From Oscillospiraceae bacterium (GTDB lineage Bacteria > Bacillota > Clostridia > Oscillospirales > Ruminococcaceae): a stretch of 64,000 nt of DNA. The stretch spans positions 14,140 through 78,139 of the forward strand of contig JAFLUI010000002.1 in the NCBI GenBank assembly GCA_022508825.1, written 5' to 3'. This document shows, in pieces, positions 16,725-40,765 of the stretch (position 1 is its first letter; the number at the start of each line of letters is the position of its first letter). Made by a program: the position numbers and the translations under genes. Under the pieces are notes generated by a model, which was given only the letters and a program-made list of their open reading frames with translations, made no database searches and had not been told where the DNA came from.

Positions 16725-16730
16725 TTATTA

Positions 16731-20961: not shown

Positions 20962-21105
20962 TTGAAGGTAAAAGCAGGTCAGGATATCGAGGAACGCGCC
21001 GTAGTTCTCGGCCGTTATATTCTCGAGAATAAAGCTACTGTTCGTGCCGCTGCTAAACAGTTCGGAATTTCAAAATCCACGGTGCATATGGTTGTAGTAA
21101 ATTAG
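20962..21105 (+). pseudogene. spoIIID: spoIIID 5' segment (interrupted gene; SpoIIID codons 1-42 end at 21086, then 5 element-derived codons and a stop)
   Basis: TTG start with GGAG 7 nt upstream. Translation (M)KVKAGQDIEERAVVLGRYILENKATVRAAAKQFGISKSTVH matches the SpoIIID HTH region (B. subtilis ...KKTVRVIAKEFGVSKSTVHKD...). The start codon is uncertain. Confidence 0.85.
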
Positions 21106-21108
21106 AAA
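21064..21108. other. attL (host half-site + CA core + element left arm TATGGTTGTAGTAAATTAGAAA)
   Basis: See the mobile element entry. The left arm 21087-21108 is the reverse complement of the right arm 40585-40606, apart from 2 mismatches. Confidence 0.75.
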
Positions 21109-21137
21109 ATGTGGTTTTTGTGGTTATATAAAGATTT

Positions 21138-21190
21138 GCATCACTCATTTCATCGCTCACGCAAAGCGAATTAATGAGTGATGCTTATTT
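21138..21190 (+). terminator. Long nested hairpin plus T-tract just inside the element's left end
   Basis: GCATCACTCATT (21138-49) pairs with AATGAGTGATGC (21173-84). An inner TCGCT/AGCGA stem is present, followed by TTATTTT. It would stop read-through from the spoIIID promoter into the element. Confidence 0.55.
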
Positions 21191-21257
21191 TAGCTTATAT
21201 ACCCTGCTCTTGTTTTCTCCCTCAGAAACAATGATATTTTCTTTATTACTTTGCTTT

Positions 21258-21314
21258 ATCGCCGATTTTTATCAACGATTTTTGTCGCCGATTTTTTATC
21301 GCCGATTTTCTTTT
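21258..21314. repeat. Four tandem 13-14 bp repeats, (A/G)TC(G/A)(C/A)CGATTTTT
   Basis: ATCGCCGATTTTT, ATCAACGATTTTT, GTCGCCGATTTTTT and ATCGCCGATTTTC, read directly from the sequence. Confidence 0.8.
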
Positions 21315-21420
21315 CACTGAGATCAGTGTTATGCGTTCCGTTTTTTGAGCGTTCACCAATATTACCAATCTTATTATTTCGGCAAATTTTATAAATTTCT
21401 AAAAATCTGCCGAAAATCTA

Positions 21421-21449
21421 TTGACAATTTTTAGGATTTAGTTTATACT
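21421..21449 (+). promoter_or_regulatory. SigA-type promoter of the ATPase gene
   Basis: TTGACA (21421-26), a 17-nt spacer, then TATACT (21444-49). Confidence 0.5.
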
Positions 21450-21493
21450 AATATAAAATGAAACATTGGACTTCAGCTATTCGGGGGTGTATT

Positions 21494-22723
21494 ATGAGAT
21501 ATATTGAACGTCATATGGAGGATCGAATACTTGATTTGAGTAAATCATACTCCGCAATACTTCTGACCGGACCTCGTCAAGCAGGAAAGACAACAATGCT
21601 CCGATCCCTTGCAGAAAAAGAAAATATCGGTCGTGAATATGTATCTTTGGACGATCTTACAGAACGTGATATGGCAAAGAACGACCCCAATCTATTTCTG
21701 CAGCTGCACAAGCCGCCGGTACTGATCGATGAAATACAGTACGCCCCGGAGCTGTTCACATATATAAAGATCCACATTGACGAGGAGCATAATCCGGGAG
21801 ACTTCTGGGTGACAGGGTCACAGATTTTTCGTTTGATGCGTGGTGTGCAGGAATCTCTTGCAGGACGTGTGGCGCTTCTGCATATGTCTCCCTTATCACA
21901 GCGAGAAATTACAGGGGCAAAGTGTATACCATTTACCACAGACTTTGACAAGCTTCTGGAAGAAAGCAAAAGCTTTACTGGAATTACTGTACCTGAATTG
22001 TTTCGCCGTATCTGGACAGGCTCTATGCCGGGAATTGTCAGCGGCCAGTATCCCGACAGAAACATTTACTACGCATCTTACCTTTCAACCTATGTAGAAC
22101 GGGATGTGCGGGATATTTCTGCCGCTGTGGATGCACTGAAATTCAACAGATTCATTACAGCTGCCGCTGCAAGAACATCCCAGCTTCTGAATTACAAAGC
22201 CCTTGCAGATGATGCGGACATTGACATGGCAACTGCAAAGGCATGGTTAAATATCCTTGAAACACTGGGAATAGTTTTTCTGCTGCACCCCTATTCAAAT
22301 AATGTATTGAAGCGGACTATAAAGACTCCGAAGCTATATTTTTACGACACAGGACTTGTCTGCTACCTGACAAAATGGTCATCTCCGGAAGTTGCCGAAA
22401 GCGGTGCCATGAACGGAGCACTTCTTGAAAATTTCACAGTATCTGAGATCATGAAAAGCTATCAGAATTCCGGACTTGAACCATATCTGTATTTCTACCG
22501 TGACCGGGACTCCAAAGAGATTGATGTTATCATAGAAGGTGACGGTATGCTTTGTCCCCTTGAGATCAAAAAGACTGCCACTCCGGACAAGCGTCTTGCC
22601 AAAACATTTGATGTCATCAACAAATCACCGCTTAAGTCGGGTACGGGAGCTATTCTTTGCATGGCGGAGAAATTCAGTGCATTTGACAAGGATACTTTGA
22701 TAGTGCCAATTGAGATGATATAG
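21494..22723 (+). CDS. AAA-family ATP-binding protein with C-terminal DUF4143-like domain
   Basis: Walker A LTGPRQAGKTT and Walker B VLIDEIQ. ATG at 21494 with GGGGTG upstream; the tracked ORF starts at 21458. Confidence 0.75.
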   Translation: MRYIERHMEDRILDLSKSYSAILLTGPRQAGKTTMLRSLAEKENIGREYVSLDDLTERDMAKNDPNLFLQLHKPPVLIDEIQYAPELFTYIKIHIDEEHNPGDFWVTGSQIFRLMRGVQESLAGRVALLHMSPLSQREITGAKCIPFTTDFDKLLEESKSFTGITVPELFRRIWTGSMPGIVSGQYPDRNIYYASYLSTYVERDVRDISAAVDALKFNRFITAAAARTSQLLNYKALADDADIDMATAKAWLNILETLGIVFLLHPYSNNVLKRTIKTPKLYFYDTGLVCYLTKWSSPEVAESGAMNGALLENFTVSEIMKSYQNSGLEPYLYFYRDRDSKEIDVIIEGDGMLCPLEIKKTATPDKRLAKTFDVINKSPLKSGTGAILCMAEKFSAFDKDTLIVPIEMI

Positions 22724-22915
22724 TTTAAGGGGCTATTGCATTTTTGGCAACAACCCCAAATTTCAATTCATGAGACATTTTATACGACTCTAAGAGCATA
22801 AAAAACTAATATTCATTTATAATAAGTATTAGTTATAAAAAGAAATGATCTTATGGAACTTAAAAAAGAATAGAACAACTGAAATTTCAAGTTAAACTAT
22901 TGTTTAATAATCCAC

Positions 22916-25900
22916 CTAAAATATACGATGAATAATTTCCAAACTTAGGCAATCTAACTTTGCAAGAATATTTTCTAAATTATCATCTTCTTGTCCGGGT
23001 CTGCATCCATTAGGCCAGTCACCTTCTAACTTAGTCTTGTTTTGTAGCAACTTCTCCACATATAAGTATTTCCATTTTGCAAAATGTAATGCGCTCAAAT
23101 TTTTTGCTAGATCCTCTCTTTTTATTAATTGAATACTGGGTCTATGTTTTACCCAATATCCATCTTGACAGTAATGAACAAAATAGCAAACTAAATGAAT
23201 AGGTGTTACAGCAGCTGCCACAATGCAAATTAGAGCAAAAATTATTCCGAATAAGTCTTTATAATTTTTAAAAATCACCCAAAAAGCAATCGTAATTGCT
23301 ATTGAACAAATCAGTTTGATGAAATTAATTAAAAATACCCTTTGTTTTAGCAATTTAATATAAAGAATAAATTGGTTAAGTAATTTAGTAAAAGATGTAC
23401 ATCCTTTTGATAAATTAATAACTATTTTCTTAAATAAATAATAAAAATCATGCACAAATATTATCAATTGCGCTGCATTAAAGGAAATTACACATAAAAT
23501 AATAGCTAAATATATTACTACAGACCATTCTGGTGCATTCAGCAGTATCCCAAACATAACTATTCCCGGGAAAAAAATACTAGAAATTATAAAAAATATG
23601 TTATCTACATATTTACCTTGCCTATATATATGATGGTGTGTAATAATATAAATAATAAAAATTATTTTTGTCGCATAATTTAAAATATCATCGTAAAAGT
23701 TTACAATATGCAATGGTGTCACAGTTTTTTGAATACTCCAACTTGAATCTATTAACTTGGTCAATAATATAATGGCGCTAACGCCTACTGTAACCATCAT
23801 GGATATATATTTCATAAAAATACACAAATGGACAATTTTTACATACCTAAAACTCTTGGAAATAGATAATGAAAAATGTGTATTTTTGTACCGTTTTAAA
23901 AAAGTGGTCATTTTCATAGTAAAAAAATATGTGGAAAATCTTGTTTCAACACGATTTTCCAATTTATGAATCAACCGACAATTTTGTAATATCAAATCAT
24001 TTAACCAACGGTTTTTTAAACTAAAAATCTTAAGAATTGCATCATGCATATTTTGTTGATCAAATAGAACCATGCTATTAGTAAAAGCAATTAGTATAAC
24101 AAAATCCGTATCATCATTTATACTCTCAATTATCAATTGTTCAAATTCTTTGATAAAATCCGACAAAATATTTTGGCGATTACGAAAGGCTTCTGACATA
24201 AAGTTTAATGTATTCACAAGTTCTATACTGCCTTTATTTAGAATGCTATTCCTATAAGAAATATTATTTTTAATCACATCCCAACAGTATCTAGCAATCT
24301 CATAAGCTTTTGCATCGTTAGTTACCTCACAGTATAAAACAAGTGCATCTCTCATTCCGGAACCATTAATAATGCCATTGTACTCGTCATCTCCAATATC
24401 TTGATGCTGCTCCATAATGCTTTCCACCAAGAAAAATTCTTGAAATCTGCGATGAACAAATGAAACACTTCCATTAATTCCTCCAAACCTACATATTTTT
24501 GCATATTCTAAAATCTTGATGGCTTTCTGCCAGTATTCTTTAAATAATCCATTAGACTGCTGATATAATTCATAAATTGGACATTCCAAACCATACTTGG
24601 GTGATTCCTGAAAAAAGGCAGCAAGTCTTTTGGCTGCTTTATGTACATCTTCTTTTGAGAAGTCTTCACTTTCTATCTTTCCTGCACACTTATTTAAACG
24701 GCCATCAACAAAATTACTATATAAATCCATTTGATTTTTAGGGAAAACTATACCTTTTTCTTTTATAAAATTGATTAATAATGTCAAGTAAAAGGGATTC
24801 CGACATAGTACTACAAGATCTTCTCTTTTTCCAAATAATTCTTTAACAATTTCATCTGCATTGTTCAAATATTTTTCCAGCATTGTTTGAATTTTGATAT
24901 CATTAAATTCTTGTATACGAAGAATAATAGTCGGTCTAATTGCCTCAGAGGGAGCTTTATACAATCTAGATGCTACGACACCACCACTTTGATTATTACC
25001 TGTCATAAACTGAAATAATATCTCAGAAATATGATCAATTAGTTCCTGACAATGCTGTTTACCCATTAAACATGGCATCTCATCAAAAGAATCAAAAATG
25101 AAATACCACCGTCCATCTTCTAGCATACTATCAAAATAACCATTCAAAAATCCATCTGTAAAAAAGTCACCATTTTCATAAAGTTCTTCTTTCACAAATT
25201 CTATCAAATCATTTTTATTCGGTAATTTATTTATGTTCCAATTTTTATTCCATTTTTTTAGGTTTATATAGACAGGAATTTTTTTTGTCTTTTTAGACTC
25301 ATCCAAAAGTTCAAGACATAGTTTTCTCAAAGAGACACTCTTACCTGCGCCTGGATCTCCTAGTACTAAAAAAACATCTGCTCCATGCTTAGTTTTTTTC
25401 AGACATTTTAATAAATCTGAATACTTCTTTTTACGTCTTCCTTTAACATTTACTTCCACCTCTGCTTCAATGGGAGTAAACAAATTTTCGTTCCAATCTG
25501 TTTCTCTATTTAATGTTTCTAACCGTTGCCGAAGTGCATTACAAAATGCCATACTTTTTTCAGAAAAATTTTTTTCACGAAAGATCGGATTTTCATTTCC
25601 TTTATGAATTCCAATAGCTGTTCTATCCTGTCCATAAAATACTAATATGATAATAAAAAATATCCAAAACAGAACAATAAGTGCCGTTTCGTTTCCAATA
25701 TTATTAGGGCTATCAATTCCTATCTTATTACACAAAGAATCAATAATATTATTGTATAACTGACTGACAAATGAAGCAAATTCAGTTTTTGAAAACGCTT
25801 TACATATTCCTGTAAGACAAGGCTCTGCCATAAATAAAATCGTACGCATTCCTTCATTCTCTAAATTTCTCACTAAGAGAAAAGCAGATACAAACAATAT

Positions 25901-26011
25901 GAAACACAAGCTAATAATTTGTGCTTCACTTTCACTAAATACACCAAACGATAACGCTATAGCAATGATCATCGCTATTAGTGCCGCTAACCATATGATA
26001 TTTTTTTTCAT
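22916..26011 (-). CDS. Membrane-embedded NACHT/STAND NTPase (N-terminal TM helices, NACHT, helical region, C-terminal multi-TM domain)
   Basis: Walker A VLGDPGAGKSVS, Walker B WYFIFDSFDEM, and the NACHT-type motif LCRNPFYLTLL. About 3 hydrophobic helices precede the NTPase and at least 6 lie in the last ~330 aa. Very AT-rich. An alternative start lies at 26020. Confidence 0.7.
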   Translation of the reverse strand: MKKNIIWLAALIAMIIAIALSFGVFSESEAQIISLCFILFVSAFLLVRNLENEGMRTILFMAEPCLTGICKAFSKTEFASFVSQLYNNIIDSLCNKIGIDSPNNIGNETALIVLFWIFFIIILVFYGQDRTAIGIHKGNENPIFREKNFSEKSMAFCNALRQRLETLNRETDWNENLFTPIEAEVEVNVKGRRKKKYSDLLKCLKKTKHGADVFLVLGDPGAGKSVSLRKLCLELLDESKKTKKIPVYINLKKWNKNWNINKLPNKNDLIEFVKEELYENGDFFTDGFLNGYFDSMLEDGRWYFIFDSFDEMPCLMGKQHCQELIDHISEILFQFMTGNNQSGGVVASRLYKAPSEAIRPTIILRIQEFNDIKIQTMLEKYLNNADEIVKELFGKREDLVVLCRNPFYLTLLINFIKEKGIVFPKNQMDLYSNFVDGRLNKCAGKIESEDFSKEDVHKAAKRLAAFFQESPKYGLECPIYELYQQSNGLFKEYWQKAIKILEYAKICRFGGINGSVSFVHRRFQEFFLVESIMEQHQDIGDDEYNGIINGSGMRDALVLYCEVTNDAKAYEIARYCWDVIKNNISYRNSILNKGSIELVNTLNFMSEAFRNRQNILSDFIKEFEQLIIESINDDTDFVILIAFTNSMVLFDQQNMHDAILKIFSLKNRWLNDLILQNCRLIHKLENRVETRFSTYFFTMKMTTFLKRYKNTHFSLSISKSFRYVKIVHLCIFMKYISMMVTVGVSAIILLTKLIDSSWSIQKTVTPLHIVNFYDDILNYATKIIFIIYIITHHHIYRQGKYVDNIFFIISSIFFPGIVMFGILLNAPEWSVVIYLAIILCVISFNAAQLIIFVHDFYYLFKKIVINLSKGCTSFTKLLNQFILYIKLLKQRVFLINFIKLICSIAITIAFWVIFKNYKDLFGIIFALICIVAAAVTPIHLVCYFVHYCQDGYWVKHRPSIQLIKREDLAKNLSALHFAKWKYLYVEKLLQNKTKLEGDWPNGCRPGQEDDNLENILAKLDCLSLEIIHRIF

Positions 26012-26068
26012 ATAAACCATCCTATACTTTTAATACATACCTTATTACTCATACGATATGCTACGCTA

Positions 26069-27148
26069 TTATTCCTTTTTTGACTGATTTCTCTCAATAA
26101 CATCCTTTAATTCACTAAGGGTCATTATGTAGTTTTTCTTGTGATGTATCATGCGGTGACAGTTTGAACATAAGCAGATCATATCATTCACCGGATCAAC
26201 ATTTGTTTCTCCATCAAGAGTATGAAGCGGTTTTATATGATGAACTTCTATAAAGTTTTCACCAAGTTCATACATACTCTTAAAGTCGAAACCGCAAGCC
26301 ATACAAGTATACCCATGTGCTTCTATAGCAGCTTTTCTGTTTTGCGGATTTCGTTCATATCTTCTTCCATAATGTTCTATTTTTCGTCCTTCGGTACCGA
26401 TCCTGATTACAGTAGTTTCCAAATCGTCTGAATTCAACAATTCTTTTATTTCAATTTCAGGCTCGGTATCGTCAATATCACCCATCATCCATACAAAAGA
26501 GTGAGCATCTATCAATTCAGCAGAGCGGTCAATGTCAGCCGCCAGCTTTTCCTGCACCCACTTCATAATTTCCAGAAATGTCTGATAGTTTTCCCATGTA
26601 CATTCGGAAAGGCAGTCTGTTTCAAAACCAAGTCTTTTAAATCTTTCCCTGAATTTATCCGGTCTTGCCGGGACGTATTTTGTACAGTCCTTTATAAAGA
26701 ACAAAAAAGAAAGCAATGGAAATTTTTTGCCCCACAGTTCTATAGCTTCACCAAATAAGGCTTCATCTTTACCATCGGAAGTAAAAAGCCTGTACAAAAT
26801 ATCTTCAGATTTATACAGATGATTTGAAAACTTCTTTTCAATATCATATGTAACATCTCGCCAGTTCAAAAGGTTCTGTTGTATACTGTCAACACGCATT
26901 TTCATAACAGAAAGTACTTTCTTAGTTATCTCTCCTGTTCCGACCATATCAGCAGACCATGAGGGAATACCAAGAATACGCTGTGCCTTATCATAAATAT
27001 CACGCTTGTACCATTCCTGATATCTGATATATCCGGAGGAAAATGAAATTTCCATAGTCGGACAATTCCTTTCCGCCTGTTTCTTTAAAACTGCATCATA
27101 AAACTGTAAAAGACATCGTTGAAATCTCTCTTCGTTTGGAATAAACAT
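26069..27148 (-). CDS. HNH endonuclease with unknown ~270-aa N-terminal domain
   Basis: C-terminal GYTCMACGFDF...FIEVHHIKPL...NDMICLCSNCHRMIHH (HNH with CxxC pairs). The gene ends 48 nt upstream of the NACHT gene on the same strand. Confidence 0.75.
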   Translation of the reverse strand: MFIPNEERFQRCLLQFYDAVLKKQAERNCPTMEISFSSGYIRYQEWYKRDIYDKAQRILGIPSWSADMVGTGEITKKVLSVMKMRVDSIQQNLLNWRDVTYDIEKKFSNHLYKSEDILYRLFTSDGKDEALFGEAIELWGKKFPLLSFLFFIKDCTKYVPARPDKFRERFKRLGFETDCLSECTWENYQTFLEIMKWVQEKLAADIDRSAELIDAHSFVWMMGDIDDTEPEIEIKELLNSDDLETTVIRIGTEGRKIEHYGRRYERNPQNRKAAIEAHGYTCMACGFDFKSMYELGENFIEVHHIKPLHTLDGETNVDPVNDMICLCSNCHRMIHHKKNYIMTLSELKDVIERNQSKKE

Positions 27149-27225
27149 TTATACCTCCAATAATTGTTTTGCAAATGTTGCCGCCTTAGCTTCCATTAAA
27201 AGCTAAATCATTGCTGTATAAATCA

Positions 27226-27254
27226 AGTATATCACAAAAACAGCTATTTTTCAA
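27226..27254 (-). promoter_or_regulatory. SigA-type promoter for the HNH-NACHT gene pair
   Basis: On the minus strand: TTGAAA (27254-49), a 17-nt spacer, then TG-n-TATACT (27231-26). Confidence 0.5.
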
Positions 27255-27370
27255 CGCATTTGGACTTTAAATTTTAAACAACATTCCGCAGGCAGTCAAT
27301 GGAGTTTCCCTCCATCGACAGACAGATGGACCACACCTGCCTTTCCTGCGAAAATATGTATATTTCTGAC

Positions 27371-27406
27371 AAAAAATAAACTCTCCTCATGAGATCACGA
27401 GAAGAG
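27371..27406 (-). terminator. Rho-independent terminator after the mob module
   Basis: Minus-strand CUCUUCUC...GAGGAGAG, an 8-bp stem with one G-U pair, followed by UUUAUUUUUU. Confidence 0.55.
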
Positions 27407-27422
27407 CAATACCACAATATGA

Positions 27423-27590
27423 TCACTTAGCCTGTTCAGAGGCTGATTCACTATCCTTATTTTTTTCATACTCCGTGATTGCGTTCCTGAGCTTTTTACA
27501 TCCTACCTCGGTAAAGACCTTCATAAGCATATTATATGTATCTTTTTCCGAGTTGGGGTTGTGAAACCTGAATGTCAGCTTCTGCTGCAT
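27423..27590 (-). CDS. Small hypothetical protein (55 aa)
   Basis: Not in the ORF track because it is under 60 aa. ATG with AAGGAG 8 nt upstream. Translation MQQKLTFRFHNPNSEKDTYNMLMKVFTEVGCKKLRNAITEYEKNKDSESASEQAK. Sits downstream of the relaxase fragment. Confidence 0.45.
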   Translation of the reverse strand: MQQKLTFRFHNPNSEKDTYNMLMKVFTEVGCKKLRNAITEYEKNKDSESASEQAK

Positions 27591-27727
27591 AAGACCAGCT
27601 CCTTTTCTGTTATAAAAAAGCTAAGATTGTCCATTTCATTCTATGCTTTCAGGGATATAATATATGCCTGAAATCAATGCGTATAACATTTATGGACATT
27701 AAAATCCTGTTGTATGTAAGATAAATC

Positions 27728-28171
27728 TTAACTTTGAGAACCAAAAACCTGCTCGCAGATTTCGTGTAATGCTCGTCTTATACCTTCATCGTCTGTAAGC
27801 CTCGAACCGTCAAGAAAGCTTATGGTATTTACCATAAAATGTGTATGAATATTTGGTGTATCCGAATGTACGCAGAACACTACCTGATGCTTGTAAAAAT
27901 AAGAAGCTATGTATGAGGATATCCTAAACATAGCTTCATCTGATATATTAGCGTCCGTTGACAGCGAAATGATGATATGCAGCAGTTGCCTGCCGTCATC
28001 CTTACCAAACAACCTTTTGACGTGCTTCATCATATATATGGCTTCTTCCGGTAAGGCATTATAGCATCCTGTCAATCCATATGTCTTTACCGAACGGCTC
28101 ATATACTCATAGAGCGTTTTTATTGCGTCAGGATTCGTGTACGGTCTGTCTACTAATTTAATATACCACAT
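27728..28171 (-). CDS. Relaxase/mobilization nuclease domain protein, short (147 aa; probably truncated)
   Basis: MobA/VirD2-type pattern: LLHIIISLS..., then the histidine triad region VFCVHSDTPNIHTHFMVNTI. Full relaxases are usually several hundred aa long. Confidence 0.6.
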   Translation of the reverse strand: MWYIKLVDRPYTNPDAIKTLYEYMSRSVKTYGLTGCYNALPEEAIYMMKHVKRLFGKDDGRQLLHIIISLSTDANISDEAMFRISSYIASYFYKHQVVFCVHSDTPNIHTHFMVNTISFLDGSRLTDDEGIRRALHEICEQVFGSQS

Positions 28172-28437
28172 ATATTCATAACTCCTTCCTCAAGTGCTTC
28201 GCAGATCTCAGGGTAATCGTTTCCAGCAATTTCATAAACCTTGTTTACGGCATTGCTCAGAACGGATAGCCTTGCAAAAACCTCCTGTTTCATCTTCAGT
28301 GCATCTGCTGAATCTGACTCCATAAGTCTCTGTCTGATGTAGCTGCTCATACTCATGTTGCATAAATCGGCATCATTTACAACCTGCTCGTACTGCTCAT
28401 CGCTCAGTCTGACATTAATTTTTCTTTCTTTAGACAT
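28153..28437 (-). CDS. MobC-like ribbon-helix-helix relaxosome accessory protein
   Basis: MSKERKINVRLSDEQYEQVVNDADLCNMSMSSYIRQRL is typical of MobC/RHH proteins. Overlaps the relaxase start by 19 nt. Confidence 0.6.
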   Translation of the reverse strand: MSKERKINVRLSDEQYEQVVNDADLCNMSMSSYIRQRLMESDSADALKMKQEVFARLSVLSNAVNKVYEIAGNDYPEICEALEEGVMNICGILN

Positions 28438-28743
28438 GGTAATCATTTCCTCCTTATATAACATTTATATGATTGTATTGATACTCGTACTGTGCACCTA
28501 AAGAACCAAAATTACTCCAAAACACGTAAATCATGCCTGTCATTACAATTGGATATAAATATTATTCTTATTCTCATTACAGTTAGAGTACCTTAGCAAG
28601 GCAAGCTGTTTTTGTATCACAACTTGCTTTACCACTATGTAATTGTGGGAGTAAAAAGTTACATAAGCCCTCCATAGGGCACTTGAGTTGATCTAATATA
28701 TATCAGTGACCATATACTGAGAGATTCTTATATAAAATATTAC

Positions 28744-28772
28744 TTTACATCTCTATGAACTTCTGGTATAAT
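28744..28772 (+). promoter_or_regulatory. SigA-type promoter with extended -10 for the 774-aa gene
   Basis: TTTACA (28744-49), a 17-nt spacer, then TG-n-TATAAT (28767-72). Confidence 0.5.
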
Positions 28773-28904
28773 AGGTATAAAGTTCTATAAAATTATTATC
28801 ATATAATCGCAGCTATATAGCCTATTTTCTTAAGAAAAAACTGATTTTTTTGTAGACATACGCGTTTTTTAGACATACAAAAATTGTCAGATAGGAGCAC
28901 GCCT

Positions 28905-31970: not shown

Positions 31971-31975
31971 ATTTG

Positions 31976-32902: not shown

Positions 32903-32903
32903 A

Positions 32904-34010
32904 TTAATATTCCTCCTCACACTCTACCGGTTCGTTTACGTAAAGTCTGCGTTCTTTCAGATAGGTAATAAGCTCCGGTTCCTCAACGCCTGAAACAAAG
33001 TCGCACCAATTCATCAGGGTCATTTCTTCATCCGTCATCCGTGCGGATATATCACATATCCGGTTTACAAGCTGCAGGGCTGCAACAAAGGTATTGTATT
33101 TGAGAGTACCACGGAAAATACGGAACTCTATAGTTTGACTGTTTGTAAGATTAACGCAGGTATAACGTCCGGAATAGTTTTTCTTTGCATTATCAAAGGT
33201 AGCTTTGGGATTTTCCTTGATACCGTATCTTGCCGCCCATCGTGAAAGCTGACTTTCGGTGCGTCTTGAAAATTTAAGAAGCTCCTGCCAGAAACGTTCC
33301 ACAAAGAACAGCACCCTTGAAATGCACGCTTCCTGTTCCTCATGGGTATCGCCAAAGGATGAACGGTTAACATGGATATGCAGTCCGCAGGTTTTTGTTT
33401 TGTGGGAACGATAGCCAAGAGAGGCTGCCTTTCTCATAACATCAGCCCACGGCATTTTGTTAAGATGGTAATCAAGGGACATTGGATGGGTAACGATCTC
33501 CATTCCATCGTTAAGGCTGCTGTCACGCTTTATGTATATACGTCTTGTACTGTCGGCATTAGCAATGTCGATAATCTTTTCCGCATTTGAAGCATACTGG
33601 CCACCTCCGTCAATTTCAAGCTCCACACCAAAATACCGGCTGCTGCTGCCATAAAAGATCGGATCCGGTTTAAAGCTGTAGTCGTGGATATATTCGCCTG
33701 AATCGTGCCTACAATAACAGTTATGGCAATATGGATTATCAGGCTCATCATCCAGATAATAAGCGTCTTCAGCATGAATTGTTCTTCCGCAGTCCTCGCA
33801 GTCTGTATAGTATCGGGTATAGCATCTGTCACAAAGAATGTGATTGCTGTCTCCGGCAACATCGTCAGCCCATATCCTGTCGCCGCAATGACTGCAAATT
33901 ACAGTCTCATCGTCATAACATTCCTGACAGATCTCCTCTCCGTCAAAAGTTTCCATGTCATCAAGGCTGCAGGTGTATCCGCAATGGCTGCATATAAAAG
34001 TATCACTCAT
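32904..34010 (-). CDS. Amidoligase-family (glutamine-synthetase-like) enzyme with N-terminal multi-CxxC zinc-ribbon region
   Basis: At least five CxxC pairs in the first ~110 aa. Then YFGVELEIDGGG, DSSLNDGMEIVTHP and TCGLHIHVN, as in the Amidoligase_2 family. ATG at 34010 with AGGAGG upstream. Confidence 0.65.
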   Translation of the reverse strand: MSDTFICSHCGYTCSLDDMETFDGEEICQECYDDETVICSHCGDRIWADDVAGDSNHILCDRCYTRYYTDCEDCGRTIHAEDAYYLDDEPDNPYCHNCYCRHDSGEYIHDYSFKPDPIFYGSSSRYFGVELEIDGGGQYASNAEKIIDIANADSTRRIYIKRDSSLNDGMEIVTHPMSLDYHLNKMPWADVMRKAASLGYRSHKTKTCGLHIHVNRSSFGDTHEEQEACISRVLFFVERFWQELLKFSRRTESQLSRWAARYGIKENPKATFDNAKKNYSGRYTCVNLTNSQTIEFRIFRGTLKYNTFVAALQLVNRICDISARMTDEEMTLMNWCDFVSGVEEPELITYLKERRLYVNEPVECEEEY

Positions 34011-34462
34011 TTTTGATCTCCTCCTAAAATAAAGAATGGGCAAGTCCCAAAAGACTTGCCCGAAGCATTTGATATTTGTTTTCTGACTACATTACCTCCT
34101 ATAAAAAATAAGCCGCAGCATAAGCTACGACTTATTTTCGCTTCCGAGAATGACGTCAATTACTGCACACAGAATTGTGGCAATAGTAATGACCGCCATA
34201 TCTACGATTTTTGTTGCCATTTTCTCGGATATTGTGTTACCCGAAAACACGTCTGTAAAAAGATTTTATGAATGTCTCCAGTATGCTCTTGATCGTCCTC
34301 AACAGATTTTTCATCATATAGATATCCTCCTTTAATTTGATGAAGCTATGCTTCTCATGGATATAATATATGATTGAAAAATGAGGGTTTACATGGTATA
34401 GAAACAATATGATATATCACAGTTTACAATCATATATGTATAAATAGAAAAATGTAATTTGT

Positions 34463-34996
34463 TTATTTATTCTTCTTAAATTGCTTTTTAAACTCTGATT
34501 TTAGCATATTTACTCCCTTAGAAGAAGTTAGCTCTGAATCGTTTAACTTACCCATTTTTATTTGTTTACAAACTTCTATGAAAGCCTTACCCATAGCTAG
34601 AGTAATCACGCCCGCAGTTCCCCCTGAAATCATACCACCGACAACTGAACCAATTCCTGGAACAAATTTAAAAACATTCGACACAATAGTTTTTCCTATT
34701 ACTGTTGTCCCGCCAACTCCCAAAGCTGCTATAGCAAGAGTTTTAAGTCCATCTTTTTTTACATCAATTTTGAATATTCCTGCTATCGTAGCCATAAGTG
34801 CAACTTGTTCACCAATAAGTAACGGGGCATCTGCAAATGGGATCGGAACAGCGCCTGTGGCAGCCGTTGCTGCAACTGCCGCTGCGACAGCATTATCTGC
34901 TTTTTCAAGCATTTTCTTGATTTCCAGATATTTAAGTTCATCAATAAAGTCATCATCGACTCCCTCATTTTTTAAATTCTCATACTCGTTTGACAT
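34463..34996 (-). CDS. DUF697-like glycine-zipper membrane protein (gene D of the 4-gene operon)
   Basis: 177 aa. Hydrophobic Gly/Ala-rich helices (GAVPIPFADAPLLIGEQVALMATIAGIF and VPGIGSVVGGMISGGTAGVITLAMG). AGGAGG ribosome-binding site. Starts 18 nt after gene C. Confidence 0.6.
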   Translation of the reverse strand: MSNEYENLKNEGVDDDFIDELKYLEIKKMLEKADNAVAAAVAATAATGAVPIPFADAPLLIGEQVALMATIAGIFKIDVKKDGLKTLAIAALGVGGTTVIGKTIVSNVFKFVPGIGSVVGGMISGGTAGVITLAMGKAFIEVCKQIKMGKLNDSELTSSKGVNMLKSEFKKQFKKNK

Positions 34997-35014
34997 AGTT
35001 AATTCCTCCTAAAT

Positions 35015-36457
35015 TTACATTGTAAAATAATTATAAATATCTTCTTGACTTCTTAAAATCCTGCTGCTGTCTACTCCTACCAATTCAGCAAGCTTAATTG
35101 AACCATCAAAAGCAATATTGATGTCAATATCGAAAGCTAAATCTACAGCTGATTTGAATTCCTTGAATTTTTCCATAAGAAATTCGACCAGTTTTCTATA
35201 TTCATCATCAAGCTGTGCATTTAGCTTATCAATAGCAATATTATGCTCCTGAATGCATTGTTGTTCTTTCTCTAAACAGCATTCTTTTGCAATGCCATAC
35301 ATAAACATACCGGCAGCATTACCGATCATTGCACCAAGAACAGGAATAGGTATAGCTACCTGACCTAAAACAGAAGCTATTGCACTTATTGACACATCAA
35401 GGCAAACTGTTTCGGAATTAATAATAAATTCCTCATTATCAATATTTCCCTTTCTTAATTCATTTGCCTGAGAGACAACACCAAAGGCAGCCGTAACAAG
35501 TGCGGAAGCAACATTAGCGGGTGTGGCAGTAAAATTAGTAAGCGCATATACACTTGCTCCTCTTATACCACCTTTTGCTGTATCTATTCCAGTAGTTAAA
35601 CCAATCTCCTTCCAATCCTCAGCAGTAAATTCATTAAGTTTTTTTCCGGATTTTAATTTTTCCCTAACTGCCAGACAGAACGATACACTTCCCTCTAAAG
35701 CTGCACTTATAACAGTAGCTTTAGCTCCTTCTTTTAGTGTCGGTTTAGATGCTTCATATGCTTTATCACGCTGATTTTGATCCTCTTTCTTTATATTTGA
35801 TTCTTCTTTGGAAATTGTTTCTGATACTTTTCCTTTCTGCACCTCATCATATTTTGCAATGGATGAATTAAGATTTTTAGATATACTAAGTCCGGTATCA
35901 TTTTCAAATTGTTTTACTTTGTTTAATAAACTCCAATCCTCTTTACTTAATAATGATGGACTTTCATTAGCAAGTTTTATGACTCTGCTAATCTCTTCAT
36001 ATTGATCTTTCGGAATATCATAAGCACCGCCATCATTTATAAAATCCGGATATTTGAGTAAATGCTTTTTTATATGATTTAATGTATTTTCAGCGCCATT
36101 AATGAATTTCGATTGAATTGGCTGACCGTTTTTCAAATAATCTTCAGGTGCTGTTCTGCCAACCCCATCAAAAGTATATTCACTGGCTAATCCTTTAATT
36201 AAATTTCTTGCATTTGAAATATTTACCTGAATATGCTCTGCAATTTCTCCATGCTTTGTATCTGGATTTCCGAGAATATGACTTGGGTCACCTACAAACC
36301 GCTTTAGTTCGTCAAGTTCTTCAAGAGCTTCTAACAGATTTATATCCTGCTGTGTTAGCTTTTCTATCAATCTATCAAGCCTTAATTGATTCAAATGGTC
36401 TATCCAAGCTGCAGATGCTTGTTCTTGGGTACTTTTAAGTATTTTCTTACTATCCAT
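35015..36457 (-). CDS. Hypothetical protein: soluble N-terminal ~230 aa plus C-terminal hydrophobic helices (gene C)
   Basis: 480 aa. The C-terminal half carries helices such as VSISAIASVLGQVAIPIPVLGAMIGNAAGMFMYGIA, which share the (A/V)PIP motif with gene D. Starts 14 nt after gene B. Confidence 0.6.
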   Translation of the reverse strand: MDSKKILKSTQEQASAAWIDHLNQLRLDRLIEKLTQQDINLLEALEELDELKRFVGDPSHILGNPDTKHGEIAEHIQVNISNARNLIKGLASEYTFDGVGRTAPEDYLKNGQPIQSKFINGAENTLNHIKKHLLKYPDFINDGGAYDIPKDQYEEISRVIKLANESPSLLSKEDWSLLNKVKQFENDTGLSISKNLNSSIAKYDEVQKGKVSETISKEESNIKKEDQNQRDKAYEASKPTLKEGAKATVISAALEGSVSFCLAVREKLKSGKKLNEFTAEDWKEIGLTTGIDTAKGGIRGASVYALTNFTATPANVASALVTAAFGVVSQANELRKGNIDNEEFIINSETVCLDVSISAIASVLGQVAIPIPVLGAMIGNAAGMFMYGIAKECCLEKEQQCIQEHNIAIDKLNAQLDDEYRKLVEFLMEKFKEFKSAVDLAFDIDINIAFDGSIKLAELVGVDSSRILRSQEDIYNYFTM

Positions 36458-36471
36458 TACATCTCACACCC

Positions 36472-37314
36472 TTATTCAACTGTTTTGTTGATTAGTTCAG
36501 CCAATGATAGTGTATTATTTACTAACGTACCAAGCTGTATCTGAACATCTCCGCTCAATTTGATGAAATCTGAATTTTTATACTCAGAAAGATCGTTATG
36601 TTGTACGCTCAGTTTGTCATGAAGTACTTCTGTTTCATCGATCAAATTATGTACTTTCTCATTGCAATTAACAACAGAGGCTCTATACTTTGCAATTTTT
36701 TTCGCTTCCTCTACCGCCTCGTCAGCAATTTTGCTGTTCTTAGCTGAAAGTGAAATCAAAGATACACCAGTCCCTGCGGCAGCAATACCCCATCCAATTG
36801 GTCCTGCTAACGCAAGTAATGCCTGTCCTGCTGCTATACCACCTCCACCTGCTGTTAAAGCGCCTCCACCAAGCCATGCTAACGCCGCCTTAGTAGCTGC
36901 TGCTCCAGACAGGGTACTTATTGCTGTTCCAGTCGAGGCTGTTCCAAAGGTAGTAGCAATGCTCATGGCAACAGTAGGAGCCATCCCTGCAAAAGCACCA
37001 CCTGCACCTATTGCAGACATAACACCTACACCAGATTTTACATTACTTTCCATAGCTTCTTTAGCATATGATTCTGTTTCCTTAAACTTATCTCTCTCCA
37101 TGTAAATACGCTGGATTTTCTGTTCAAAATCTTTCGGCGTATTGGCAATACTATTAATTAATTCACCAACTTTTTCAATACAAATAACAGCTGATACCCG
37201 TTCACGATATAAAGTATCACAGCTTGTCATCATTGTTTGATATGCACTGTCATATTTATCCACCTCTTTTTTATGAATAGCGAGTGCATCCTTTTTTAAA
37301 GACGAGTTAAACAT
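36472..37314 (-). CDS. Coiled-coil protein with central Gly/Ala-rich glycine-zipper membrane region (gene B; paralog of gene A)
   Basis: The central ~95 aa read GVGVMSAIGAGGAFAGM...LAWLGGGALTAGGGGIAAGQALLALAGPIGWGIAAAGTGV. The helical N- and C-terminal arms are homologous to 37401..38288. ATG at 37314 has GGAGGA upstream; the tracked start is 37329. Confidence 0.6.
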   Translation of the reverse strand: MFNSSLKKDALAIHKKEVDKYDSAYQTMMTSCDTLYRERVSAVICIEKVGELINSIANTPKDFEQKIQRIYMERDKFKETESYAKEAMESNVKSGVGVMSAIGAGGAFAGMAPTVAMSIATTFGTASTGTAISTLSGAAATKAALAWLGGGALTAGGGGIAAGQALLALAGPIGWGIAAAGTGVSLISLSAKNSKIADEAVEEAKKIAKYRASVVNCNEKVHNLIDETEVLHDKLSVQHNDLSEYKNSDFIKLSGDVQIQLGTLVNNTLSLAELINKTVE

Positions 37315-37400
37315 ATCCTTATCCTCCATTTTTTATTTACATCATTAGATGACATTTATAATAAATATCAGCATCAATGCTATTTGTAAATATGAGACAT

Positions 37401-38288
37401 TTATTTAATCTCTTCGTTAATAAGCTTTGCTAATTCCAACGTTTCGTTAGCCAAGCTACAAATAGAATTTTGCTCATATTCATCCAATTCGGAAAAATTA
37501 ACATTTCTGAATTCATATCTCGCATTATAAAAATCTTTAATAAAAGAATAGTACCATATTGTCTTTTTACTTAAATTTCTTATATTGCTGATACATTTTT
37601 CTATAGATGTTTTGTACTTTTCTAAACATTCCGATGCTCTGAATGACATCTTATCATTCCACCATGTAGAATAAAATCTCCCAAAATAAGCACGATTAGA
37701 TACCGATTTTTGTGCTCTGAGTGTAATGGAACCACCCAAAGCAAATAATGCGTAATTTTTTCCTAATTTTAAGTCAATTAAATTATCATTACTATGAAAT
37801 TCTGAATTAATTACGTTGCCGCCAAACCATACTGACATAAATGATGAAAACGGTCTCCGAGGCAGGGCCTTTCGTTTTGCAAGTCGCTCGAGTCGTGATG
37901 GTCTGTCTAAGTTTAATTTGATAAATTTTTCCGCTTTTTCTGTTAAACCTGTTCCAAAAGTGGTTATAAAACATATATAAGTTTCAAAATCAGGCGACCA
38001 GAAAGGTTGATTATAAAACAATAAAAAAAGTTCCTCATCTATTTCACTTTTAGCATATTCTTCCTTTCCACTAAAAAAATCTACTTGCTCAATGATTGAG
38101 TGTACCATATTTTCAAGATCATATGGTTTATTGGTGATGCTGTTGATCAATCCACAAATTTCTTCTATGCATTGTACAGATTTGATCCTGTATAGGTATA
38201 AGGAATCACAATATGCCATCATTGTATCATAAGCTCGATTATAGTTGCTTACACTATTATTGAATTTTTTATAACCAAAGATATTCAC
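37401..38288 (-). CDS. Hypothetical protein, paralog of gene B lacking the glycine-zipper core (gene A)
   Basis: GTG start with AGGAGG 5 nt upstream. The N-terminal arm (YNRAYDTMMAYCDSLY...CIEEICGLINSITNKP) and the C-terminal arm (...LANETLELAKLINEEIK) align with gene B. Confidence 0.6.
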   Translation of the reverse strand: MNIFGYKKFNNSVSNYNRAYDTMMAYCDSLYLYRIKSVQCIEEICGLINSITNKPYDLENMVHSIIEQVDFFSGKEEYAKSEIDEELFLLFYNQPFWSPDFETYICFITTFGTGLTEKAEKFIKLNLDRPSRLERLAKRKALPRRPFSSFMSVWFGGNVINSEFHSNDNLIDLKLGKNYALFALGGSITLRAQKSVSNRAYFGRFYSTWWNDKMSFRASECLEKYKTSIEKCISNIRNLSKKTIWYYSFIKDFYNARYEFRNVNFSELDEYEQNSICSLANETLELAKLINEEIK

Positions 38289-38442
38289 TATTGCCTCCTG
38301 TAATAGTCTTCCATATTCTGTTCAATTATTACAGCATATCGACTGCTTAATTAGGGCTTTATCAAAGTATACCATATTACAATAGACAATATATGTCATT
38401 CTCAAAAAATTCATATATTATAATTCAGAAACTTATGACATA

Positions 38443-38471
38443 ATTATACACTATTAGCGTAAATATGTCAA
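38443..38471 (-). promoter_or_regulatory. SigA-type promoter of the 4-gene operon
   Basis: On the minus strand: TTGACA (38471-66), a 17-nt spacer, then TATAAT (38448-43). An 8-bp inverted repeat TATGTCAT/ATGACATA (38391-98 and 38434-41) lies just downstream. Confidence 0.5.
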
Positions 38472-38556
38472 GAACTAAATGCCGTTAGCTACAAATTTAT
38501 ATGAAAAGCAAGAGTATTCTTTATTCTATCAGCGTATGATAAAATTACACTAAGAG

Positions 38557-38910
38557 GTGATAGTTTTGAAAAACAGCTTAAATGTAGAGATAGGAAGCAG
38601 GGTACGCCAACAGCGTAAGCTTATAGGATACACCAGAGAACAATTTGCAGAAGCCCTTGATATATCAGAACGTTTCGCAGCTGATATTGAGCTTGGAAAC
38701 AGAGGTATGTCATTTTCAACACTGATACGGCTTTGCAATCTGCTTTCAGTATCATCCGACTATATTCTTATGGGAAAAGAACCAGAAGCCGAGCGTGACC
38801 ATTCTGCAATAGATAAACTTCTTTCCTCCATCGATGACAAATACATCCCTTACACCGAGGACTTGCTGAAAATACTGGTTAAGATCATCAACACCTCCGA
38901 AAAGAAGTAA
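38557..38910 (+). CDS. XRE-family helix-turn-helix transcriptional regulator
   Basis: IGSRVRQQRKLIGYTREQFAEALDISERFAADIELGNRGMSFSTLIRLCNLL is a classic Cro/C1 HTH. The start may be TTG at 38566. Confidence 0.85.
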   Translation: MIVLKNSLNVEIGSRVRQQRKLIGYTREQFAEALDISERFAADIELGNRGMSFSTLIRLCNLLSVSSDYILMGKEPEAERDHSAIDKLLSSIDDKYIPYTEDLLKILVKIINTSEKK

Positions 38911-39025
38911 TGCGCCCTACTAAAAAAGGCAAAGCGATTCCAAGTAAAAGCCGCCCGAAACAGTGTTTCGGGCATTTTTCCTTGTAATACGCTTTGCCTT
39001 TGCTAAAATTATTCTAAAATATCTC

Positions 39026-39054
39026 TTGACAATCTCTAAATTCTATGTAATAAT
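39026..39054 (+). promoter_or_regulatory. Putative SigA-like promoter of the large serine recombinase gene
   Basis: TTGACA (39026-31), then an A/T-rich -10-like TAATAAT 16-18 nt downstream. A nested hairpin terminator at 38925-39003 precedes it. Confidence 0.35.
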
Positions 39055-39084
39055 AAGCAGTAACAGAAATAACGGAGGTAATAT

Positions 39085-40734
39085 ATGAATATTGCAGCAT
39101 ACTGTCGTGTTTCCACCGACAAAGAAGACCAGCTCAACAGTCTTGAAGCTCAGAAGAACTTTTTTACGGAATATACTCAGAACAACGGTCACAACCTTGT
39201 CCGTTTATATGCCGACGAGGGTATCTCCGGAACGAAAATAAAGAACCGCACTGAATTCCTGCGGCTTATGCGGGATGCTAAAAAAGGTCTGTTTGAGATG
39301 GTAGTGGTTAAGGACATCTCCCGTTTTGCCAGAAACACCGTTGACTTCCTCCAGAGTATCCGCCAACTGAAAGCCCTGAATATTGAGACGGTTTTCCTTA
39401 CTGCCAATCAGACAGTCCTTGGAAACTCCGAATTTGTCCTTACGATTTTTGGAGCCCTTGCACAAGAGGAGTCCGCAAACACCTCCAAGCGTATAAAGTT
39501 CGGAAAAAAGATCAACGCCGAAAAGGGACGTGTCCCTAACTTTGTTTTCGGATACGATAAGACCATAGGGGACTATTTCAACCTTACCATCAACGATACT
39601 GAGGCTGCTATTATCCGGGAGATCTTCGATATGTACATCAATGAAGAAATGGGAGCGTCCCGAATTGCCACCACTTTGAATAACCGCGGCATAAAAACAA
39701 AGCGTGGCTACAACTGGACCCAGAATGCCATTGCCCGAATACTTACCAACAGACTTTACATAGGTCAGATTATCAACGGCAAGGAGGAGGTTCAGGACTT
39801 TCTTACAAGCAAGCGTCAGAAGCGGGATGAATCTGACTGGCTAATTATGGAGCGTCCGGAGCTTCAAATAGTTGATACAGATGTTTTTGAGCGTGCTCAG
39901 ACTATTATGGAGAAGCGCAAAAACTCTTTTATCAACAATCATGAACGAAACAGCAGCAGACATCTTTTCAGCACCCTTATCAAGTGCAAAGAGTGCGGAT
40001 ACTCTTTCCGTAGGACAAGCTATAAGGGCAGAAGCCGTTGGGTATGCAGCGTCCGGAACACTCGCGGAACAGACTCCTGTCCCAATGCTGTTGTTATTGA
40101 GGAGGATGTTCTGATAAGTGAGATACAGACCTATTTCGCTGAAATAATAAAGAATAAGAACACCATGATAAAGAATATTAAAGCAGAGTTTGAGCGGGTC
40201 TACAAAAACAGGGACGACAACGAAAGCTATAATGCCGAGCTTACCGAGCGCAGGGACACCCTTGAAAAGAAGCGTCAGAGGTACATGGATATGTACGTTG
40301 ACGAGCTTATAAGCCGTGAAGAGCTTAACGAGAATGTAAAAGGCATTGCCTCTGAGCTTGAAAAGATAAAAAACGAGCTCACCATTACCGAATACAATCT
40401 CAGCCGGGGTGATGTTCTTGAAAAAGTCCTTGCTCAGACCTTCTCCGGAATAGAAAATACCGCTGATGTCTCCTCCATGATTAATGCTCAGCTTAAGCAG
40501 ATCATTAATCGTATAGAGGTAGACAAGGACGGTCACATCGATATTTTCCTTAATCTTTTCGGCGAGATCGGTATTGATGAGTCGTTTCTAATTTGCGACA
40601 ACCATACACAAAGATATAACCGAGAAGCTCCCCGTAGTATGTCCGCAGATGTATCCGGCAGTAAAAGAGGTGCTGGAGATCAACAAGCAGGAGCGGCACA
40701 TACGGGGCGGAATGGCTACAAAACACAAGTATGA
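39085..40734 (+). CDS. Large serine recombinase (resolvase catalytic domain, recombinase domain, zinc ribbon, coiled coil)
   Basis: MNIAAYCRVSTDKEDQLNSLEAQ contains the catalytic Ser. Zn-ribbon cysteines CKECGYSF...WVCS. 549 aa with a GGAGG ribosome-binding site. The ORF crosses attR, so its last 41 codons are encoded by host spoIIID DNA in another frame. Confidence 0.9.
   Translation: MNIAAYCRVSTDKEDQLNSLEAQKNFFTEYTQNNGHNLVRLYADEGISGTKIKNRTEFLRLMRDAKKGLFEMVVVKDISRFARNTVDFLQSIRQLKALNIETVFLTANQTVLGNSEFVLTIFGALAQEESANTSKRIKFGKKINAEKGRVPNFVFGYDKTIGDYFNLTINDTEAAIIREIFDMYINEEMGASRIATTLNNRGIKTKRGYNWTQNAIARILTNRLYIGQIINGKEEVQDFLTSKRQKRDESDWLIMERPELQIVDTDVFERAQTIMEKRKNSFINNHERNSSRHLFSTLIKCKECGYSFRRTSYKGRSRWVCSVRNTRGTDSCPNAVVIEEDVLISEIQTYFAEIIKNKNTMIKNIKAEFERVYKNRDDNESYNAELTERRDTLEKKRQRYMDMYVDELISREELNENVKGIASELEKIKNELTITEYNLSRGDVLEKVLAQTFSGIENTADVSSMINAQLKQIINRIEVDKDGHIDIFLNLFGEIGIDESFLICDNHTQRYNREAPRSMSADVSGSKRGAGDQQAGAAHTGRNGYKTQV
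40585..40630. other. attR (element right arm TTTCTAATTTGCGACAACCATA + CA core + host half-site)
   Basis: See attL. The CA core is at 40607-40608. Confidence 0.75.
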
Positions 40735-40765
40735 GGAAAAATCGCGCAATGCGATCGACGGATAA
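40609..40765 (+). pseudogene. spoIIID: spoIIID 3' segment (codons 43-93 plus stop; no start codon of its own)
   Basis: The frame translates (H)KDITEKLPVVCPQMYPAVKEVLEINKQERHIRGGMATKHKYEEKSRNAIDG*, colinear with B. subtilis SpoIIID HKDLTERLPEINP...VRHLRGGEATKLKYK. Confidence 0.85.

Follow-up and report, generated by a model that had tools for sequence, protein, structure and literature searches.

Is a sporulation regulator that has been cut in two by inserted DNA still a gene in use? The question is raised by a stretch of 64,000 nt (contig JAFLUI010000002.1, positions 14,140 to 78,139; called the window here), in which the chromosomal spoIIID of an uncultured gut Oscillospiraceae bacterium is interrupted by a 19.5-kb integrative element. 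SpoIIID switches the mother-cell programme from the sigma-E to the sigma-K phase, and a spoIIID mutant of C. difficile yields ~3,000-fold fewer heat-resistant spores (PMC3789822). The source is a 110-kb metagenome contig (ENA ERZ27293326), whose recombinase is labelled by NCBI as that of an Oscillospiraceae metagenome-assembled genome (MAG). Our answer is a probable yes: a large serine recombinase (LSR) placed the element in spoIIID, as relatives did at the same codon in other hosts, and its precise excision in the mother cell would restore the 93-codon gene.

The split gene and the ends of the element

The split gene, the element and the junctions have the following window coordinates.

20962-21086, + strand: spoIIID 5′ half, the helix-turn-helix part, 41 codons + 2 nt; the unexcised product is truncated at 47-50 aa by the stop at 21105
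40609-40765, + strand: spoIIID 3′ half, 1 nt + 51 codons + stop, with a terminator-like hairpin downstream at ~40812-40824
21087-40606, no strand: intervening element, 19,522 bp including one core copy, 36% GC, phage structural genes absent
21085-21086, + strand: attL crossover core CA, in GGTG-CA-TATGG
40607-40608, + strand: attR crossover core CA, in CCATA-CA-CAAAG
21087-21108, + strand: left-end attP arm TATGGTTGTAGTAAATTAGAAA
40585-40606, + strand: right-end attP arm TTTCTAATTTGCGACAACCATA, within the 3′ end of the recombinase open reading frame (ORF)
20900-20928, + strand: candidate sigma-E-type spoIIID promoter, ATT-N16-CATATACA
21131-21191, + strand: hairpin with 27-nt arms and a T-rich tail after it, an inverted repeat just inside attL

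The 5′ half runs from TTG 20962 (alternatively GTG 20953) to 21086 and encodes ...AAAKQFGISKSTVH; its translation from either start reads ...ATVRAAAKQFGISKSTVH before it passes into MVVVN and a stop at 21103-21105. The 3′ half encodes KDITEKLPVVCPQMYPAVKEVLEINKQERHIRGGMATKHKYEEKSRNAIDG and a stop (KDITEKLP...NAIDG); a start codon of its own is lacking. When the halves are joined at the CA dinucleotide present at 21085-21086 and 40607-40608, 125 + 157 = 282 nt give 93 codons plus a stop, and the interruption falls after the second base of codon 42, the His of ...SKSTVH/KD..., in the recognition-helix region. A first-pass annotation, made from the letters of the window, had proposed just this: the two halves, the five unrelated codons ahead of the stop, the crossover at CA and colinearity of the product with SpoIIID. 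Each of these proved exact. The joined protein matches the Pfam SpoIIID profile PF12116 (E = 2.4e-37, 127.3 bits, profile positions 4-81 of 82) and lies above the NCBIfam equivalog cut-off of TIGR02844 (115.6 vs 111.5 bits), and in tblastn each half aligns solely to its own part of it. No second spoIIID-like sequence was found within the 64-kb window; the rest of the genome was outside this search.

Uninterrupted alleles give the natural counterpart of the join. A protein search with the joined ORF returned full-length SpoIIID proteins of up to 98% identity. One allele, L029, on a 579-bp contig from a sibling sample, is 98% identical in amino acids and ~92% in nucleotides to both window flanks and crosses the predicted join with zero bases gained or lost; a second, L030, from another metagenome, also tiles exactly over it. 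GC content falls from 47-49% in the flanks to 36% in the insert.

Upstream of the gene, the candidate promoter (within TCATTA...CATATACA) resembles in sequence the mapped C. difficile spoIIID promoter, ATA-N16-CATATATA (PMC3789822). The block that contains it is conserved in the window, L029, L030 and partly in L035, a related locus taken up below; similarity is much weaker farther upstream. The hairpin inside attL may terminate transcripts of the 5′ half, and it fell outside the criteria of the terminator scan. Also just inside attL are tandem 13-nt units with CGATTTTT, at 21257-21294, of which another copy occurs at 34199-34223.

The dinucleotide CA is the sole sequence common to attL (GGTG-CA-TATGGTTGTAGTAAATTAGAAA) and attR (TTTCTAATTTGCGACAACCATA-CA-CAAAGAT), and the core has the same place in 25 related loci. 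The left arm matches the reverse complement of the right arm at 20 of 22 positions, and homologous arms occur at attL of three related elements (L015, L025 and L028). With such inverted ends around CA, the reconstructed attP, TTTCTAATTTGCGACAACCATA-CA-TATGGTTGTAGTAAATTAGAAA, is a 46-bp near-palindrome with a 2-bp core, a sequence typical of the sites used by large serine recombinases. The junctions predicted after excision are ...AAATCCACGGTGCACAAAGATATAACC... for attB and ...GCGACAACCATACATATGGTTGTAGTAAA... for attP; those drawn up in the first pass agree with the natural intact alleles and with the att consensus of the whole family. Judged from these sites, the LSR placed the element by recombining attP with the attB of spoIIID at the CA core.

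The recombinase and its relatives at the same codon

39085-40734, + strand: LSR gene; residues 1-508 come from the element, and the spoIIID 3′ half, read in a different frame, supplies the final 41 codons (40609-40731) and the stop
39026-39054, + strand: sigma-70-like LSR promoter, TTGACA, 17 nt, TG-n-AATAAT; 11/12 matches plus the extended -10 TG, a consensus match only

A large serine recombinase gene had been described as abutting the junction. The gene is present as described, but it does not merely abut, because its ORF crosses attR. The Resolvase (PF00239), Recombinase (PF07508) and Zn_ribbon_recom (PF13408) domains all score above cut-off, and the N-terminal serine motif YCRVSTD is intact (within AAYCRVSTD, residues 4-12). 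Its nearest relatives of solved structure are a C. difficile conjugative-transposon recombinase domain (the closest catalytic domain), SPbeta SprA, TnpX and the TP901-1 integrase; its best NCBIfam similarities, to CcrB, CcrC and XisF, are all below cut-offs. The promoter sits 30 nt 5′ of the LSR start, after a terminator at 38953-38973.

The 3′ end of the gene is supplied by the host. In 21 of 24 related loci with the same orientation the LSR ends ...CAT ACA TAA, with the TAA formed from the host His-Lys codons CAT-AAA. The host of the window has the synonymous CAC in place of CAT, so no stop forms and the LSR ORF runs 41 codons further, to a read-through form of 549 aa; the usual form in the family ends ...DNHT. 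After excision the predicted LSR has 522 aa and ends ...DNHTYGCSKLENVVFVVI; since the integrated and excised ends differ, the C-terminus of the LSR depends on the state of integration.

A scan with the LSR, taking one genome per species, yielded 27 loci with recombinases of 41-81% identity. Their hosts are mostly gut or rumen Oscillospiraceae/Ruminococcaceae, with others labelled Acetatifactor, Christensenellaceae and Eubacteriaceae; strain Sanger_06 of Huintestinicola butyrica (L017) is the sole record not labelled as a MAG. At 25 of these 27 loci the recombinase directly adjoins a spoIIID 3′ half, which begins each time at the same His codon. All 25 of these 3′ halves are open and retain ERHIRGG-ATK-KY. 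By these sequence comparisons the window element belongs to an LSR family that targets one spoIIID codon across gut Clostridia, which amounts to a set of natural LSR/attB/attP trios for one conserved target. The other two loci (L023 and L024; LSR 46-48% identical) lie away from spoIIID, and no interrupted gene was recognised at either.

Divergence among the recombinases tracks the divergence of host SpoIIID (Spearman 0.62, over 231 non-independent pairs), which suggests long association, or else transfer mainly among relatives. The LSR of one further locus, L035, is >90% identical to that of the window, and the whole element there is oppositely oriented relative to spoIIID. The 5′ half of the L035 host encodes a protein identical to that of the window (93% identical DNA), and opposite orientation in so closely related a host points to independent integration events. 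A flipped core dinucleotide would give the L035 orientation. The DNA invertase of the element was considered as its cause and rejected, because the whole backbone is colinear and it is thus the entire element that is inverted, not an internal segment.

Three loci (L015, L025 and L028) show both ends of the element. These elements measure 3.7-3.8 kb and their cargoes differ; no accessory or small gene common to the three was found. In L025 the recombinase is on the other strand. The L015 element (850-4535, 3.7 kb, from an Acetatifactor MAG) has, to judge from ORF translations alone, what look like a NERD-like gene and a nucleotidyltransferase/HEPN pair, followed by an LSR that stops 16 nt short of the junction. 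All of its genes are co-directional with spoIIID, so transcription that starts at the spoIIID promoter and reads on could boost recombinase expression in the mother cell.

Three other records touch on the use of this site. In L027, which has the most distant LSR associated with spoIIID (41%), the element side of the junction (~4560-4590) reads ...QSTV before HKD and is host-like, so the crossover position can be placed only with the other end. The 114-kb contig L006 (JAMPIC010000003.1) contains a split spoIIID and an LSR of the same family and is labelled as a Prevotella sp. MAG, probably through a binning or labelling error. A 51-aa protein from a 1853-bp ENA contig (P0128) has a SpoIIID 5′ half identical in protein to that of the window and continues ...STVQTDIYKMEIV; its sequence suggests a different element arm at the same CA, and that more than one type of element may use the site in the same host group.

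Cargo, backbone and surroundings

21458-22723, + strand: AAA_14/DUF4143 ATPase, cargo; PADLOC candidate defence system PDC-S01, E = 2.6e-109
22916-26020, - strand: NACHT/STAND NTPase, cargo, 1034 aa
26069-27148, - strand: HNH endonuclease, cargo, 359 aa
27423-27590, - strand: conserved 55-aa backbone ORF
27728-28464, - strand: mobilisation-type backbone genes for a short protein with a MobA/VirD2-like relaxase domain (147 aa) and for a NikA-like protein (103 aa)
31289-34043, - strand: backbone operon of amidoligase, class-II glutamine amidotransferase and a 185-aa DNA-invertase-like small serine recombinase; block 88% identical in nucleotides to L035
34463-38288, - strand: cargo, a DUF697 protein, PDC-M09B (E = 1e-178), PDC-M09A (E = 5e-100) and an M09A-like protein; candidate defence system
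38557-38910, + strand: HTH_3 (Xre/cI-type) regulator, with the terminator at 38953-38973 next to it
19910-20842, + strand: truncated second PDC-S01 copy outside the element, directly 5′ of the spoIIID promoter; 91% nucleotide and 95% amino acid identity to 21377-21410 and 21823-22721

Comparison with L035 separates the parts of the element. Three blocks are shared at 88-90% nucleotide identity: 27284-28632 (55-aa ORF, relaxase-like and NikA-like genes), 31300-34393 (invertase-like, amidotransferase and amidoligase genes) and 38839-40606 (LSR). The genes between the blocks differ; in place of the 34463-38288 cargo, L035 holds a different gene of SLFN/AlbA_2 type. By this comparison the element consists of a conserved backbone with exchangeable cargo slots that hold candidate anti-phage systems, so that defence islands are carried inside a developmental gene. 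The relaxase-like protein may be too short to function; L035 keeps equally short relaxase-like and NikA-like forms (148 and 94 aa). No coupling-protein or type IV secretion system domain was found among the domain matches of the element proteins.

The first-pass annotation had likened the architecture to skin. This is right for a split gene with an LSR but not for the cargo, which is not prophage-like. A PHROGs scan of the element found no structural, packaging or lysis family; its matches are to HNH endonuclease, invertase, integrase, amidotransferase/amidoligase and HTH regulator families, besides two families of unknown function that the amidotransferase and amidoligase also match. Relatives of the LSR in IMG/VR have only 38-40% identity and none is at spoIIID. 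An origin as a prophage was rejected on these two grounds, the lack of structural genes among PHROGs matches and the distant viral LSR relatives away from spoIIID.

A box of ~27 nt, CATATATTATATCCnTGArAGCATAG, lies 5′ of both the 55-aa ORF (27647-27675) and the amidoligase operon (34353-34381) on the minus strand and is kept in L035. The 27647-27675 copy is embedded in a TTTCAGG...CCTGAAA palindrome. To judge by its sequence, the box could be an operator or a mother-cell-type promoter (ATA-N17/18-CATAG..T).

Both flanks are ordinary chromosome, with RNase J, GdpP, ribosomal protein L9, DnaB, TilS, Hpt, FtsH and YmdB upstream and amylase, MatE, CotH and others downstream. Upstream of spoIIID, 14508-19841 encodes two proteins, one with leucine-rich repeats (724 aa) and one with a dockerin (615 aa), which suggest that the host has a cellulosome-type or other surface scaffold system. 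The truncated PDC-S01 copy lacks a 412-bp stretch that contains the promoter and N-terminus, and the intact relative L029 has no similarity at its position. Downstream of spoIIID, a 115-nt intergenic direct repeat (40802-40916 and 41458-41572, 84% identical) includes a strong sigma-70-like box in both copies, and the L029 contig matches both.

Probable excision, its rivals and the known systems

Several features of the split gene bear on its use. The window allele differs from intact L029 by 14 synonymous changes and one non-synonymous change (dN/dS = 0.017), and at the single replacement the window agrees with intact L030 and L031, leaving L029 as the odd one. Both halves are open, and conservation with the intact alleles extends to the ATT-N16-CATATACA box, the ribosome binding site and the TTG start.

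If skin, SPbeta and gin are a guide, the element would be excised in the mother cell. It would stay in the germline, where its position would be free of cost during growth; after sigma-E activation, LSR-catalysed recombination of attL with attR in the terminally differentiated mother cell would remove it precisely and restore the 93-codon spoIIID. The restored SpoIIID would drive the later mother-cell programme, and the forespore would retain the integrated copy. The LSR would be made constitutively, and a small sporulation-controlled factor would switch it to excision: because the LSR promoter is sigma-70-like, timing is probably set by such a second factor, a recombination directionality factor (RDF). 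Control of excision by SpoIIID would be impossible where spoIIID itself is split, so the trigger would be sigma-E alone or something earlier.

For the RDF we have a weak candidate in the 55-aa ORF. Homologues of 57-67% identity occur ≤3 kb from the LSR in L005, L007, L008, L009 and L010, with one more in L035, and all have CATA-type -10 boxes upstream. A looser sporulation-promoter pattern picked the spoIIID promoter and the region upstream of the 55-aa ORF, along with several likely chance matches. The ORF has no match in Pfam, NCBIfam or PHROGs, and it is absent from many relatives; it may instead be part of the mobilisation module.

A number of points weigh against excision in the mother cell. 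The low dN/dS could merely reflect recent insertion. Neither the exact joined SpoIIID (with either of its two possible starts) nor the predicted excised form of the LSR is in a collection of 15 billion proteins. A degenerate attP pattern gave 0 matches in viral contigs and 23 in metagenome contigs, none of these beside an LSR or spoIIID; for this reason, and because most are in one recurrent unrelated sequence context, we take them as chance. No RDF was recognised in the element, the promoter scan found no convincing sigma-E or sigma-K promoter for the LSR, and the LSR of the window has its abnormal 41-residue tail. In the related locus L028 (3001-4450), a frameshift divides the LSR into ORFs of 151 and 361 aa and both spoIIID halves are intact; either the element has been immobilised or the assembly is wrong at this point. 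The two PDC-S01 copies of the window form 890-bp direct repeats that bracket the 5′ half and attL, and homologous recombination between them would delete both. Finally, the host is a MAG, and a second spoIIID may lie beyond the 64-kb window, in the rest of the 110-kb contig or elsewhere in the genome.

A more ambitious form of the excision model may be entertained, though we would rather bet against it. Here an old LSR family would use the spoIIID codon as a germline-safe harbour for defence islands, and sigma-E-triggered, SpoIIID-free excision would be an obligatory checkpoint or timer between the sigma-E and the SpoIIID/sigma-K phases. The LSR end ...HT and stop of the integrated state, as against the longer tail on the circle, would contribute to directionality. 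Of its ingredients, specialisation on spoIIID, exchangeable defence islands and a host-supplied LSR stop are partly observed.

An unlikely but serious rival to excision is a dead-end insertion, in which the element is permanent, the host is asporogenous or oligosporogenous and spoIIID is simply a conserved place to land that is neutral for growth. Many gut Clostridia have lost the ability to sporulate. The collections searched contain no excision junction, and the unrecognised RDF, the aberrant LSR tail in this host and the short relaxase-like gene would all fit, as would L028, where a frameshifted LSR beside intact gene halves indicates that immobilised copies can exist. Against it, 0 of 25 split alleles has a stop or frameshift, and the SpoIIID 3′ halves are ~50-100% identical among hosts. 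The dN/dS of 0.017 relative to an intact allele and the conserved promoter, ribosome binding site and start codon also speak against decay, the inverted copy of the element in a sister lineage speaks for recent movement, and Ruminiclostridium cellulolyticum H10, which has the same split, is recorded as a spore former. Genome-based predictions of sporulation would score many uncultured gut Oscillospiraceae as lacking spoIIID or as having a pseudogene when the gene is probably restorable.

We find it more doubtful still that the element is a reversible switch without an RDF, with an LSR that, like TnpX or CcrAB, does both excision and integration, flips at low frequency in vegetative cells and so makes sporulation capacity heterogeneous. 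The constitutive-looking promoter would suit such a switch, as would the sub-cut-off similarities to CcrB, CcrC and XisF, the conjugative-transposon recombinase as closest solved catalytic domain with TnpX also matched, the minimal 3.7-kb elements without a common accessory gene and the two orientations among related hosts. But excision in the germline, if not followed by re-integration, means loss of the element. The collections searched contain neither an empty site nor a circle from the window strain, and every characterised LSR element in a sporulation gene relies either on an RDF or on a recombinase promoter specific to sporulation (PMC5025042, PMC5595907). A chimeric assembly of spoIIID chromosome and unrelated low-GC element can be dismissed for practical purposes: the MEGAHIT metagenome contig, the sharp GC drop in the insert and the repeated gene beside the junction might raise the suspicion, but both junctions fall on the same dinucleotide in one codon with the frame restored, the insert ends form a 20/22 inverted repeat, and the same junctions recur in 25 independent assemblies, including the H. 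butyrica record not labelled as a MAG.

Mother-cell excision, the reading that we prefer, has its precedents among elements established in sigK, spsM, spoVFB, spoVR and gerE (PMC4191935, PMC5595907); one in yabG has been reported in an abstract. The first-pass annotation had thought spoIIID an undescribed target, and in this it was mistaken, since spoIIID has been known as one since 2022. In one sentence, Galperin et al. 2022 (bioRxiv 10.1101/2022.02.25.481979) report spoIIID of R. cellulolyticum H10, a listed spore former, to be interrupted by a skin-like element. According to their Table S3, the gene (Ccel_3110/Ccel_3179) is divided into fragments of 126 nt (5′) and 144 nt (3′) by an element of 64.7 kb with the recombinase Ccel_3111. 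No other report of a split spoIIID was found in the literature searched, subscription-only papers excepted, nor was any description of the breadth of the family, the non-phage defence cargo, the two orientations or the host-supplied recombinase stop codon.

The H10 element splits the same gene and leaves a 5′ fragment equally long (126 nt, up to and including the His codon), has a serine recombinase of ~510 aa at a junction, likened here by length and position, and resides in a host with the same broad family label (Oscillospiraceae sensu NCBI). It is 64.7 kb long where that of the window is 19.5 kb, and its recombinase is beside the 5′ half on the opposite strand, ending ~107 nt from the junction, whereas the window LSR is at the 3′ half and reads across. 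The H10 case has only been catalogued; as cultured carriers, R. cellulolyticum H10 and H. butyrica make the checkpoint question testable.

The skin elements in sigK (B. subtilis SpoIVCA; C. difficile CD1231 with the RDF CD1234) are likewise LSR elements in a mother-cell regulatory gene whose ORF is restored by excision, but skin is prophage-derived and the window element is not. In B. subtilis, skin excision is SpoIIID-dependent through spoIVCA expression. In C. difficile it depends on SpoIIID via CD1234, and a constitutive recombinase is combined with a small sigma-E-dependent RDF, the model that we favour for the window element (PMC5025042). Because both characterised skin excisions depend on SpoIIID, a split spoIIID moves the DNA-rearrangement checkpoint one tier earlier and needs a different trigger.

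SPbeta in spsM also pairs a constitutive LSR, SprA, with an RDF, SprB, that has a mother-cell promoter (PMC4191935), and SprA is among the solved-structure relatives of the window LSR. SPbeta is an active phage in a late structural gene, whereas the target here is a regulator. The fdxN element of Anabaena heterocysts, with XisF, is another case in which a serine recombinase, acting during development in a terminally differentiated cell, restores a gene through excision, but in a different phylum and a different developmental programme; the window LSR scores 118.6 bits against the XisF model, short of its equivalog cut-off of 375, and so falls outside the XisF family.

A further parallel is gin in gerE of Bacillus cereus ATCC 10987, for which excision by the GirC recombinase and the accessory factor GirX have been demonstrated (PMC5595907). 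Like the window element, gin is not a prophage, splits a small helix-turn-helix gene for a mother-cell transcription factor, has more than one serine recombinase gene and carries defence-type cargo, in its case a restriction-modification system (PMC5595907). The two differ in that gin recombines within a 9-bp shared sequence, against a 2-bp core here, and in that gerE is a late, sigma-K target, against the early, sigma-E target spoIIID. As an island of defence and mobilisation genes, the window element stands nearer to gin than to skin.

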